From assembly GCA_951406725.2 (NCBI GenBank), contig OX597816.1, positions 10,602,001 to 10,666,000 of the forward strand: DNA of 64,000 nucleotides, given 5' to 3'. The translations under genes and the position numbers were made by a program. The stretch's first letter is position 1. Each line of letters starts with the position of its first letter. This DNA is from Octopus vulgaris (taxonomy: Eukaryota). Below the pieces are notes generated by a model. That model was given only the letters and a program-made list of their open reading frames with translations, had not been told where the DNA came from and searched no databases. Positions 2,158 through 61,055 of this stretch are shown piece by piece.

Positions 2158-2984
2158 ATACACACATATATATATATATGAAAAGAAAATGAAAAGGTTA
2201 TATATACGTTGAATTATTTCAAAGTGTAGGATTTTTTTTTCTTTTCCGTATTTTACATTTTACTCTTCTTTTTCTTTGAATTCAATCATGAACAAATTTC
2301 TCTGAAGAATTCCCCAGATTTCTTTCTCAAAGAAAATGAAGAAACAATGCACAAAATAATTCTCTTTCTTCATCAACATGAAAGATACACCATTTTATTA
2401 TTATCATTATTATTATTATTATTATCCATTATTAGCTTTATGGTGTACTGGACTGGCAGAATCATTGGAGCACTGGAAAAAATTGCTTTAGGTATTTGTT
2501 CCAATGCTTTATATACTGAGTTCAATCCCTGATGATGTCAAAGTTGTCTTTCATTCTCCAGCATTAATAAAGTAGCGTATTTGTGAAACATTTACTCTTT
2601 GCCTTCAAAATTGCTGGCCTTGTTCCAAAATTATCATCATCATCTTGATTATCATTCCGTGGTCAATTTTGCCTTTCATCCTTTCGGGGTTGATAAAATA
2701 AGTACCAGTGATACACTGGGGTCGATGTAATCTACTAGTTCCCTCTCTCCAAAATTCCAGGCCTTGTGCCTTTAGTAGAAAGGATTATTATAATCATTAT
2801 TATCATTATTATTATTATTATTATTATTATTCCGAGGTCGATTTTGCCTTTCATCCTTTCGGAGTTGATAAAATAAGTACCAGCTGAATACTAGGGCCGA
2901 TGTAATCAACTTACTTCCTCCCTCAAAATTTCAGGCCTTGTACCTTTAGTAGGAAGGATTATTATTATTATTATTATTATTCAG

Positions 2985-3595
2985 CAGTCTGATTTTCATC
3001 ATGTGCTTTCACTGCTCTACTGAGCACAGCTCTCTGTGTCTTAAGTATGTGCTGTGGTTTGATGTGGTGATCTTATTTTCACTGTATTGAAAGTGTTTTA
3101 CATAGGATGTTTGCATTGCCTAGTAGTGCTATTTTCTGTATGTTGTATAAATTTGTAAGTCCTGATGTTTTGGTTATGTATTTGTCAGAATGTCTTTAAT
3201 TATACATAATGCACGTATTATTATTATTATTATTATAGGGATTGCTTCTGTTTTTAGGTTCTTCATTTGGGTTACTTCTATTTCCAAATCTTTGTATTTT
3301 GGGAGTTTTTCTATTTCTTTTAGAGATATATTGCCATATGTTGATATTGATACATTGATTAGAAAGCATTTTTTCTTGATCTCTGATAACTATATCTGGT
3401 CTATTAGCCTTGATTTCTCAATCTGTATGTATTGGCATATCCCAGAATATGGCTGCTTTGTCATTTTCTGGGATGTGCCTATACCATCTTTTTTCTGTTG
3501 TCATTCGATAGTATTGTTATAGCTGCCAGTGTATATAGGTCCCAACTCTGCCATATCTGTGGATATATTCCTTCTTAGCCAAGCTTCCCCACCAC
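2985..3595 (-). mobile_element. R4/Dong-type non-LTR retrotransposon 3' fragment (restriction-like endonuclease)
   Basis: Minus translation gives YIHWQL...AIFWDMPIHTD*EIKANRPDIVIRD...KYKDLEIEVT...IQKIALLG; adjoins (TTA)n. Confidence 0.85.
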
Positions 3596-4814
3596 CTCAT
3601 ATTCTGCAGTTATTACTATTATGGTTGAAATGCTTAGCGGCATTTAGGCCGACTCTTTCAACCTTTTGGGGGTCGATAAAATTAGTACCAGTTATGCACT
3701 GGGGTTGATGTAATCGACTTAATCCCTTCCCCAAAATTTGAGGCCTTGTGTTTCCAGTATAATAACCATTATAATCATTATTATTATTACTATTATTATT
3801 AAGGAGGTGAGCTTGCAGAACTGTTAGCATGCTGAGCAAAATGCTTAGCTACATTCTGAGTTCAAATTCCACCAAAGTCGACTTTGTTTTTCATCCTTTC
3901 AGGGTCGATAAATTAAGTACCAGTTGAGTACTGGGGATGATCTAATCAACTTGTCCCCTCCCTTACCAAACTTCAAGCCTTGTGCCTATAGTAGAAATTA
4001 TTATTATTATGAGTGGCGAGCTGGTAGAAGCATTAGAGCATCTGACAAAATACTTAGCGACAATTCATCCGTCGTTACTTTCTGAGTTCATATTCTACCC
4101 AGGCCGACTTTGCTTTTCATCCTTTTGAAGTCAATAAAATAAGTACCAGTTGAGCATTGGGGAACAATGTAATCGACTTACTCCTTTCCTTTGCTGACAA
4201 AGTGCAAAAAAAAAAAAATTTGAAGCCATTATTATCATAATTTGGAGGTAGCGAGCTGGCAGAATTGTTAGCAAGCTGGGCAAAATGCTTAGTGGTACTT
4301 TGTCTGTCATCACGTTCTGAGTTCAAATTCCACCGAAGTCAACTTTCCCATTTATCCTTTCAGTGTCAATAAATTCAGTACCAGTTGCATACTGGGGTTG
4401 ATCTAATCAACAAGTCCCCTCCACAAAAATTTCAGGCTTTCTGCCAAGAGTAGAAAGGAAGACTTAGTGGCATTTTATCTGTCTTTACATTCTGAGTTTA
4501 AATTCTGCTGAGGTCGACTTTGCCTTTCATCCTTTCATGGTTGATAAAATTAAATACCAGTTACGTACTGGGGTCGAAGTGATCGAGTGGTCCTCCCTCC
4601 CCTCAAAATCCAGGCCTTGTGCTTATAGTAGAAAAAATTATTATTATTATTATTATTATTATTGTGTTCGAAGTTGTTTTTATTGTTGTTGCTGTCATAG
4701 TTGCTGCTTATTTTATTGAAGTTCATTATAGATTCCATCCATTCATCTGTCCAACAATCTTATCCCTCCAGTCAGCCAGTCTCCCCTTCCTCACACCACT
4801 CTTTCATTCACATA

Positions 4815-55359: not shown

Positions 55360-56695
55360 ACCATCGTCATCGCTTAACGTCCACTTTCCATGCTGACATG
55401 GGTTGGATGGTTTGACTGAAAACTGGCAAGCTGGGAGGCTGCATCAGGCTCCAATCTGATTTGGCAAGGTTTCTTCATCTGGATGCCCTTCCTAACACCA
55501 ATCACTCTCTGAGAGTGTAGTAGGTGCTTTTTACATGCCACCAGCACAGGAACCAGTCAGGTGGCACTGACATTAGTCACACTCGAATGATGCACACTGA
55601 CATTACACATCCAGCAGAGCATATTAGCTTCATTCCTTACAAGCCTATGTGTGACTTAAGCAATCTCAGCCCACGTTTCCCTGCTATGTAGCATATCTGT
55701 TCACACACATGCATCATACAGGCTACCTTTTACTCTCAGCGAGAGGCCCTCTGTTACCAGTTGAGATAGGAGCTCTCTGAACTTAGCTCAGCCTATTCTT
55801 ATTCTAGTAGCTATGCTCTCAGAGCATCCACTCCACTACTGACTTGGTCACCTAGGTAATGGAAGCTATCAACTACTTTTAGTTTTTTCCCCTGGCATGT
55901 GATGGAATCTGTTTCCAGTGTTAATTGTACCTGTGCATCTTTCACACACAAAAACTATCTTCCTTTAGCCTTCCTTTGATATTGCAGCACCTCTTATGTG
56001 TCCATAGCTTACACGGAGTACATCTTATGGAGTTTCTACCTTTGCCTTTTCTACAGATTGAGCAAGGCCATCTACCTGAAGGGGATTTGTGACTTGTCCA
56101 CATTGCTAATTTCTAAGACTTTGGTTTTTGCTAGATTGACCCTAGGGCCCTTTGATTCTAGACCTTGCTTCCACACCTGAAACTTCTCTAGTTCTGGTAG
56201 TGACTCAGCTATTAGAGGAAGGTCATCAGCATAGAAGAGCTCCCAGGGGCAGCCTGTCTTGAATTTCTCTGTTATTGCCTGGAGTACTATGATGAACCAG
56301 AGGGGGATGAGGACTGAACCTTGGTGAACCCCTACTTCTACCTGGAATTCTTCACTATACTCGTTGCCAACCCTCACCTTACTGACAGCATCCCTATACA
56401 TGGCTTGTACAGTTCTTACCAACCACTCCTCTATCTCTAGTTTCTGCATTGACCACCAGATAAGGGATTGGGGGTACCCTGTCAAAGGCTTTCTCCATGT
56501 CAACAAAAGCCAAGTACAGAGGTTTATCTTTAGCTAGGAATTTCTTCTGCAGCTGTTTTATCAGAAATATAGTTTTAGTGGTGCTTCTCCCTGGCACAAA
56601 CCCAAATTGCATCTCATCTAGACTAACTCTCTCCCTAATTAGTTAGGCTGTGCCCCTCTCTGTGACTTTCATCACCTGATCCAACAATTTGATGT
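55360..56695 (-). mobile_element. RTE(-X)-clade LINE, 5'-truncated: RT pseudogene plus (GAT)-type 3' UTR
   Basis: QFGFVPGRSTT..FVDMEKAFDRVP..GVHQGSVL..FYADDL..VNLAKTK; Cys-rich insert (WPCSICRKG...CERC); LRVKGSLYDACV..ETW..WMCNVSVH; then the hairpin/ggaagggcatcc tail. Confidence 0.9.
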
Positions 56696-57902: not shown

Positions 57903-59412
57903 AGGTGTCACAGCAAGATATTTGCATGAGATTGCTGATCTTTTAATTGAAGATTCTTACTGAGAAACGAGCCATTCCTATGCCCTTTTCAAGGCCTCTG
58001 GTACTTGTAGGGAAAAGGCGGGAATAATGCTCATCACTAATGTCTTTGCCAACCTTGACTGCAATTTATGTAAGCTACTCATTTGAAAGGCAATAGCCCT
58101 TGGGTGCGCCAGCAAGCAAATAGGATAGCCCTTAAGGTGTTACTCATGGAGCTGAGCACCAGTCATATCTGGTGATGTGTTTCTTTTAGAGAACCACTTA
58201 TGCTTGAATGCTCGAACAGACTGACATTACTCATGAGAAGGAACTGTCCAAAGAACTTCAGCAAGACACCAAATTATCCTCTGACAGAGTCTCAATGCTT
58301 TCAATAGAGAAGCAAATTCTGTTAAAGGTTCGCAAAGGAAACGTGGTGGTGTTAAACCAGGCAACAGTGCCACATAATAGCTGTTCTTCATGGATTTTAT
58401 CATATCAAACATCTGTTCTGATGAGGACAATGTTACTGAAACATTCTGTTTGCTTTATGACTAATGATATGACAGCTGGCGATTCTGCGTTTGGATACAT
58501 TGATATGGTTTCCTGTTGCTTTCTCTAAAGTAGACAAGAGATTTATGGATAGATGTGGATCAGATTCATAGCTGTCTTCAACTGTTTGCTTAGGCATAGA
58601 TCTTTAGATTTTGGAAAGATATTATGGCTAGAAGAACACGGATTTTTAGACAGCAATATTGATTTCTTGCTATGAATTAATTGCTATGGTTTTGCTATAA
58701 ACAATGTTAGATATTATAGGCACCAGTTTGAGCTATTATAGAGAAACAATAAGATTATATTCTAAGTGTGATTTACAGACACTGCACTCCTCTCAAAGAT
58801 GGCAGATTTATCATAAATATTAAGCTTATTGTTATTGATAACACCTAGAAGAAGGTGTTTCTTTTCCTCTTACCAAAGTGGATGGAGTTTTGGCCAGGAG
58901 GAACTGATGTTATTAGATGGTATCCAATGATTATTGGGTGTGTCAACCCTGAACTGTAACACCCTCCCATTGGTGAGTCAGAAGAGTTGGCCAAACCACT
59001 GCTCCTAATCTTCTCCCAGCTTCTTGTTCCATAACTCTGCTCTCTTGTTCCATAACCAGCAAGAGGCTCTTCAATAGTATAATCAAGGAATATAATTATA
59101 ATAACATTAATTTTTGTCTCTTGCTATGAAATATCTTGAAAGTTTCTCTCATGTAGCATTGCATGCCCCGGAGCTTGTTTTGTCATGATATAGCCCTGGG
59201 TGGACTGTGGCAAAACAAGAGAATGACAAAAATAAGGAGTGATAGGCGTCATAGGACCGGTGCTCATCTTGTGCTCATTAAGTTGTGAATATGAAGTCAT
59301 TTAGAATTTATTAACTGAAGCTGATGTTTTTTTATATTAATCCTGATCTTGCTGAAGTATTATAATGGAATCTACTCAGAGTTTATTTCCAAATCTTATA
59401 CACTTAGAATCT

Positions 59413-60382
59413 GTGGAATTCCTTCGAGTTGAATCGATGATGGGTTGTCAACACGGGCATTGGGAGGAGGTTGGTAGAGTAAGTGAGTCTTCTTGATGTT
59501 GATGCTCAGTCCAAGTTTAGTATATGCATGATGAAAAGCATTTAGGAGCTGTTGGAGGTGATCCTCACTGGAAAATATGAACCATTTCTGCTACCTTGGG
59601 AGCCATCTGTCAGCAAAGGTAGGCCTCAGCGATGAAATCCAACACCGTCTGAGGTGTGCAGGAACAGCTTTCGGCAAGCTTCGAACAAGAGTTTTTGCTG
59701 ATCGGGACATCCAAACCGAAACCAAACTCATGGTGTACAGGGCAGTCATTATTCCGACCCTCCTTTATGCATTCAAAACCTGGACCCCGTATAGTCACCA
59801 CCTGAGAACGCTCGAGAAATTTCACCAATGCTGTCTTCGGAAGATCCTTAACATCAGCTGGGAAGACAGAAGAACAAACGTCAGCGTGCTACTAGAAGCA
59901 AAAATGACCAGCATCGAAGCCTATGTCATCAAAGGCCAACTAAGATGGAGCGGCCATGTGGTTAGAATGACTGACGAACGACTTCCCAAACAGATCTTCT
60001 ACTCCCAACTCAAAAACAGCAAGCGTACAAAAGGAGGCCAGAAGAAACGCTACAAGGACTCCCTGAAAACGAACCTCAAAAAGTGTGACATCGACTTCAC
60101 TAACTGGGAGGAAACGGCAAAAAACAGACCACTCTGGGAAACCACCATCCATGAGGGAACGGCGACTTTCGAGTCGAAAAGGTCTGCAGAGCTGGAGGAG
60201 AAAAGATGATGACGGAAGGAGCGCCAACAACAACCACGTGCGACTCTCCCTTCTGGCACTAGATGTCCGCACTGTGACCGATCTTTTCAAGCAAGAGTTG
60301 GTCTTATCGGTCACCTACGGACTCACCAGTAAATTTGCGCGAAGACCATCATCCTCGACCTTGAGGGATTGCCATCATCATC
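59413..60382 (+). mobile_element. RTE-clade LINE insertion with 5' inversion, (CAT)n tail and TSD
   Basis: TSD acacttagaatct at 59400-59412 and 60383-60395; inverted RT segment 59413-59569. Confidence 0.92.
59568..60332 (+). pseudogene. RTE ORF C-terminus (RT thumb, C-terminal C2H2 finger)
   Basis: LENMNHFCYLGS...QLRWSGHVVRM..LPKQIFYSQL...KR**RKER...CPHCDRSFQARVGLIGHLRTHQ*. The two TGA are consistent with CGA->TGA decay. Confidence 0.9.
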
Positions 60383-61055
60383 ACACTTAGAATCTATGAC
60401 TGTGTTATGCTCATTGATGAATTACACTTATGTTAGAGTGGTGCATTCAACAAACAAAGTAGCACAGCAGTTCATACATTGCAACAATAATTATCATATG
60501 TTAATTAGAAACATGCCCTGCCTTTCCTCTTAAGTGAAATGTTAAAAAACATTGATTGAAATGACTTAATTACAATCCTAACTTTATTGACATCAGGACG
60601 AAAGCAACACAAAATTGGCACAGTTTGGATTTGAACACAGAAAAATGATACAGTACTATCATTTGTACCACACAGCTACCTTAATTTCTTTTGCTGGGTT
60701 CATGGAAATTGAAAAGTACTTTTGTTCACCTGTCATAAAAAACTCATTTAGGAATTTAACTTAGAAAAGATATTTCTATTATATTCTGATATTCTTATGG
60801 TTATTTCATGAACAGATAATGGAATTTAAATATATTCTGTCATGTAATGTATATTACAACATAACTACATAGATTTTACTTATTGTAAAATATGGTAAAG
60901 AAAATGTATGAGAGAAGCCTTTCCTAGTCTCTTATTTTGTTTATATTACTCATTTGTAAAAGAGCGAACTTTAATAAAAATTCTGTTATGAAATTGCATG
61001 CTTTCCAGTGTTTAAATATACTCATATTTGTAAATGTTTATATATATATATACAT

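Follow-up and report, generated by a model that had tools for sequence, protein, structure and literature searches.

The window, the whole 64,000-nucleotide stretch of Octopus vulgaris DNA analyzed here, contains a dead, 5′-inverted copy of a 3,880-bp single-ORF RTE family. Its parts are listed below in window coordinates; family coordinates refer to a 3,880-bp reference that is the majority of the fetched copies.

59400 to 59415, plus strand: 5′ copy of the target-site duplication (TSD), 13 bp exact (59400–59412) in the assembly, lengthened to 16 bp where an allele has A at 59413.
59413 to 59415, minus strand: three nucleotides of ambiguous origin; they may open the cDNA of the inverted piece (family 3073–3075) or form the primer end, the TG of which pairs with family CA (2-bp microhomology).
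59416 to 59566, minus strand: inverted segment, family 2922–3072, the end of the RT domain; 3 of its 151 nt differ from the family majority.
59566 to 59573, no strand assigned: inversion junction, with a 1-bp exact and a 6-of-8 imperfect microhomology between the pieces.
59566 to 60373, plus strand: forward segment, family 3073–3880, with 21 differences in 808 nt (2.6%), 10 of them of CpG type.
59568 to 60332, plus strand: what is left of the ORF's C-terminal part, with 213 aa of open frame, then two in-frame TGA codons at 60207–60212, followed by a finger of C2H2 type and the family's stop codon.
60373 to 60382, plus strand: the tail, (CAT)3C, whose repeat is carried on by the A that opens the TSD (1-bp 3′ microhomology).
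60383 to 60398, plus strand: 3′ target-site copy, present as a single copy in the empty allele of organism D.

The two TSD copies form an exact 13-bp direct repeat in the assembly sequence (59400–59412 and 60383–60395); in a mismatched-locus control, a non-simple repeat of at least 9 bp arose in 3/400 trials. A search of the octopus's own genome (2.8 Gb, 227 contigs) showed family copies matching query 154–970 on one strand and, adjacent to it, query 1–161 on the opposite strand. Therefore, the first 155 bp of the insert are inverted. The inverted segment is 94–98% identical to intact family copies on the opposite strand. Relative to the family majority, the inverted piece is 2922–3075 and the forward piece 3073–3880. 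That is, no family sequence is lost at the inner junction, and 2–3 nt (CAC) are doubled. The inverted piece adjoins the 5′ TSD exactly, and no inverted repeats flank it. Thus, the 13-bp TSD, the inverted 5′ segment continuing without loss into the forward part, and the (CAT)n tail, all claimed in the preliminary description, are found in the assembly. A CACT microhomology had also been placed at 59566–59569. Here the claim fails: at this place intact copies have ...ACAGAGAGGATC or something very near it, and none shown has AGTGAG, so the CACT belongs to the forward piece alone. The exact overlap at the inner junction is C59566 only, and the S of the peptide SEDHL is a junction product.

The signature had further been called complete. 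Whether it is complete depends on the allele. In the assembly allele, with G at 59413, the TSD end pairs 0 bp with the internal priming site, giving a 13-bp TSD, a blunt start and a 3-nt overlap. With A at 59413 the repeat is 16 bp, its terminal TG pairs with family CA at 3073–3074 (2 bp), and the forward piece starts exactly there. A is found in X4, X5 and X6, three of the five sequencing runs that cover the filled junction, and G in X1, X2 and the assembly. At this insert a TSD of 16 bp is about as probable as one of 13 bp, or up to twice as probable. Organism D, having no insert, gives no polarity for 59413; X4, X5 and X6 have flank variants in common and could represent a single lineage; and the only flank site able to root the alleles, 59284, is a CpG. 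Elsewhere in the window, at 56475–56639 on the minus strand, lies an older RT fragment with 56% protein identity to the inverting RTE family.

The family has one 1,136-codon frame, with no other plus-strand frame longer than 105 codons, and a 3′ UTR of ~45 nt. Relatives at 69–94% identity carry Exo_endo_phos and RVT_1. Its structure and motifs suggest a putative assignment to the RTE clade of LINEs. L1-clade identity was considered and is contradicted by the single ORF, in place of ORF1 plus ORF2, and by a microsatellite tail that is not poly(A). Across 121 copies, one shared 3′ end is followed by CAT (41), AGT (37), GAT (6), AAT (2) or other tails (35). Inverted copies occur among these at 10/41, 8/37, 4/6, 0/2 and 12/35, respectively, with no firm difference between tail types. 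Many copies sit within TA or TACA microsatellites. A T-stretch ~10 nt upstream of the cut is described for RTE sites in PMC6007223; at 36 sites of this family, T frequency was 0.25–0.53 at positions −25 to −2, with no clear peak. Five copies (L093, L139, L066, L007 and L142) have large internal deletions between colinear pieces, some with both family ends, and are possible non-autonomous derivatives.

Richness in GC had been offered as a sign that the insert is young. The insert is indeed GC-rich (48%, against 31–36% in the flanks), but as a sign of youth this is weak because the family as a whole has 50% GC. In age the copy ranks as no more than moderately young: it lies 2.6% from the family majority and is common to organisms A, B and C, and copies of a CR1-like family in the genome are up to 99.5% alike.

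Independent alleles were drawn from 6 of 24 runs: X1, X2 and X5 (organism A), X4 (B), X6 (C) and X8 (D). In X1, X2, X4, X5 and X6, which come from four studies, single-copy-depth contigs span both outer junctions, reaching 35–59 nt from the flank into the inverted piece and crossing from the tail into the 3′ flank. All five filled alleles have the inverted 5′ junction. In X8, one 506-bp contig joins 59399 to 60383, skips 983 bases and holds the 13-bp target once; its flanks differ from the assembly at 18/381 bases. The empty site therefore has one target copy rather than two. When the 3′ flank was used to look for empty paralogous sites, the window itself was the sole match. With D empty and A, B and C filled, the insertion likely occurred after the split of D and before the split of A, B and C, a timing consistent with divergence from the family majority at 21 of 808 nt.

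Inversion is frequent in this family. An exact 33-mer from the 3′ end has 155 matches in the genome, 100 of which were examined; removal of three segmental duplicates (L045, L077 and L108) left 97 unique copies. Of these 3′-end-sampled copies, 27 are inverted (28%, CI 20–37%), another 67 are truncated and 3 are full-length; leaving out the copy in the window gives 26/96. The proportion is not different (p = 0.57) from the 639/2068 inverted (31%) among human and chimpanzee L1s given in PMC2912911. When copies picked by BLAST score are included, 121 unique copies yield 34 inversions, all with distinct breakpoints. Inverted and other copies are alike in age, with median identities of 97.2% and 97.4%.

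The 34 inversions share a geometry. Every donor lies upstream of the forward start or overlaps it by at most 34 nt, an outcome with a probability of ~1e-9 if donors were random. Twelve inversions overlap (3–34 nt), 10 lose 1–35 nt, and 12 lose 132–3,536 nt; 22 donors lie within 35 nt of the forward start, and five extend to the family 5′ end. Inverted pieces at or near that end were noted in L040, L089, L144, L065, L067 and L143; in L040 and L089, ~50 bp from the 5′ UTR sits next to a 3′ end of 110–290 bp, across a gap of 3.4–3.5 kb. Extra or mismatched bases are present in 12/34 junctions, and all 22 junctions lacking extra bases have a microhomology of 1–7 bp, where the null expectation is 56% with zero. 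Repeats of at least 9 bp flank 24/34 inverted and 34/81 truncated copies (p = 0.008); when non-simple repeats alone are counted, the figures are 14/34 and 19/81 (p = 0.07). The non-simple TSDs of inverted copies are 9–15 bp long. The last TSD base equals the family continuation in 11/15 inverted copies with a usable TSD (null ~44%, p = 0.02), and likewise in 11/15 truncated copies. Five of the 67 truncated copies (L058, L083, L084, L101 and L020) have a 13–23-nt reversed family match at the 5′ end, with a chance of 0.8% each; these were left out of the inverted count.

Two other LINE families in the same genome serve as controls. For both, the reference is the 3′ 2–3 kb, so inverted pieces from farther 5′ are missed and the control rates are lower bounds. 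The first, with an (ATT)n tail, is CR1-like, a putative clade label based on motifs. It is young: it has 2,074 exact 3′ matches, many 949-aa open frames, and copies up to 99.5% alike. Among the first 30 of the 2,074 matches, 0/28 with a visible 5′ end are inverted. The 23 copies from an RT search add 0/15, with one copy shared, for a total of 0/42. Flanking repeats in the CR1-like family are mostly short or simple. The second is RTE-like, has 33% protein identity to the inverting family and matches its own references at 83–94%. In the best 30 of 40 scored copies (1,407 candidates), 1/29 is inverted, a single copy (L188:1118-1629) with a 9-bp TSD. The inverting family differs from the CR1-like family at p = 3e-5 and from the second RTE family at p = 0.004.

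Twin priming is the model that Ostertag and Kazazian reportedly put forward in 2001 for 5′-inverted L1. We consider it likely, with a probability of about 0.9, that the insert arose by twin priming at insertion and that inversion is routine in the family. The proposal of twin priming in an RTE-clade LINE is supported: of the two findings that had been named as refuting it, misassembly is contradicted by the outer junctions in independent runs, and a doubled target by the empty site. The order of events, as inferred from the end products, would be as follows. The endonuclease would nick the bottom strand where the target begins on the left; reverse transcription primed by this end would start in the (CAT)n tail and run from family 3880 to ~3073. 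The top strand would be cut 13–16 nt away, and its 3′ overhang would prime on the same RNA at ~3073–3075, giving an opposite-strand cDNA that ends at 2922. Short imperfect complementarity would then serve to join both cDNAs, with loss of the RNA 5′ of 2922, and fill-in would double the target site. The length of the overhang and the element's own enzyme would set the rate of inversion. Twin priming explains why the breakpoint falls at the TSD edge, why donors lie upstream, how large gaps arise and why the junctions pair; neither fold-back nor inversion after insertion does so. Against it speak a weak primer microhomology in the family, 0–3 bp and no stronger than in truncated copies, the extra or mismatched bases at 12/34 junctions, and the fall of the TSD contrast to p = 0.07 with non-simple repeats.

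The weak primer microhomology suits a single-priming scheme, in which the cDNA folds back or switches template (snap-back or polymerase-theta-type joining) and no second genomic primer is used. The 12/34 overlaps of 3–34 nt and the 12/34 junctions with extra bases also suit it, as do the short inverted bits of L058 and L083, which have their source downstream of the forward start and could be products of snap-back. Fold-back would, however, copy cDNA downstream of the forward start, whereas the long inverted pieces come from upstream in 34/34 cases, 12 of them across gaps of 132–3,536 nt and five reaching the family 5′ end. The upstream donors and long gaps require that the RNA, or a longer cDNA, served as template from the second end, and we regard fold-back as improbable. 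Even less probable is that a colinear 5′-truncated copy was inverted after insertion by DNA rearrangement. The junction of this copy loses nothing, as would be the case in a clean inversion, but the breakpoint would have had to hit the TSD edge exactly, not only at this insert but in most of the inverted copies whose TSD is visible, the piece lacks bounding inverted repeats, the 5/5 filled alleles are all inverted, and the CR1-like family stands at 0/42. Finally, an assembly artefact within a repeat is scarcely credible: no contig among those listed bridges the inner junction at 59566, but five runs from four studies cross both outer edges at single-copy depth and agree with an empty site holding one target copy, so misassembly is unlikely.

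The family's distribution bears on the suggestion that the element was acquired horizontally. The identities that follow are protein identities from 14 of 64 hits that were aligned. Against P0062 (Oratosquilla oratoria LOC143034827, on a 66-Mb contig), the family ORF reaches 90.8% over 326 aa and 94.5% over 91 aa, far above the other arthropod and mollusc matches (Littorina 43–47%, Penaeus 36%). Identity is 94% to an ENA protein and 62–81% to another four loci of Oratosquilla; Mobula hypostoma (P0003) stands at 70% and Anolis carolinensis (P0010) at 63%. The RT-bearing loci of Oratosquilla, Mobula and Anolis thus encode similar proteins, known solely from gene models. The octopus genome itself has 38 PF14830 matches in tandem arrays, which we take to be a marker of molluscan hemocyanin. 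Protein identity at one locus, where contamination is possible, suggests that the family was probably transferred between mollusc and stomatopod lineages; the suggestion of horizontal acquisition gains some support at the protein level. The crossing, if true, would be a natural test of element versus host.

What is new here is an L1-like inversion rate in an RTE family, with within-genome controls and an empty site. A high inversion rate requires no mammalian host. As the inverting family has no ORF1, ORF1p is likely dispensable as well. Three families in one genome stand at 28%, ~3% and 0%, at least a tenfold difference, which makes it likely that the rate is set by the element. We lean slightly toward a broader reading: high twin priming is not an L1 speciality, occurring at ~28% in an ORF1-less RTE family and not at all in a CR1-like one; the element's own enzyme sets the rate, probably via a 10–16-nt overhang; and the family has crossed between molluscs and stomatopods. 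An element with a single protein offers an uncomplicated setting in which to examine how the second strand is cleaved and how internal priming works, steps that are also relevant to rearrangements driven by L1 and to the use of retroelement proteins for gene insertion. There is also a practical consequence, in that about a quarter of the family's insertions will be annotated as two opposite fragments, inflating copy counts.

Among the papers that a literature search listed, no account of frequent RTE inversion was found. Ichiyanagi and Okada are said to have compared RTE with L1, L2 and CR1 in 2008, and their study may give an inversion rate. In the accessible text of PMC5389967, PMC13367326, PMC2718515 and PMC11371274, "twin priming" appears only within the reference lists. 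A word search of the available portions of PMC6007223 and PMC9115989 returned no mention of 5′ inversion. PMC4476161 describes twin-primed snRNA/L1 chimeras, and RTE and L2 chimeras formed by template switch only.

The family resembles RTE-clade LINEs, as these are described in PMC6007223 and PMC9115989, in its one ORF, which encodes endonuclease, RT and a C-terminal finger, its microsatellite tail, TSDs of mostly 9–15 bp, within the 7–15 bp usual for the clade, and a first TSD base that continues the tail. It is set apart by description from molluscan RTE-2_OV, the 3′ UTR of which is ~600 nt, versus ~45 nt here (PMC9115989). With L1 (PMC2912911 and PMC4245944) it shares the TSD, the upstream inverted piece, the forward 3′ piece, the tail and a rate near 30%, as well as microhomology at the inversion junction and longer TSDs in inverted copies. 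It differs from L1 in having one ORF and no ORF1, a (CAT)n-type tail rather than poly(A), and a mollusc host. Its primer microhomology is 0–3 bp, and one third of its junctions overlap rather than delete; among inverted L1s, 28/605 are without 5′ microhomology and ~70% have 2–5 bp (PMC2912911).

A further comparison is with the elements assayed in human cells in PMC4245944. There, inversion occurred only with L1, apart from a single Nimb-2_DR insertion, and was tied to element and host factors, which of the two is the determinant being left open. A 10–20-nt overhang was proposed to be needed for inversion, a proposal that the TSD pattern here fits. The one Nimb-2_DR inversion indicates, as does the present family, that a non-L1 element is able to invert. 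ZfL2-1, with a TSD of ~5 bp and zero inversions, resembles the CR1-like family here, with its 0/42 and mostly short repeats. Unlike the non-L1 LINEs of that study, the non-L1 family described here inverts at the L1 rate, and does so in a non-mammalian genome.
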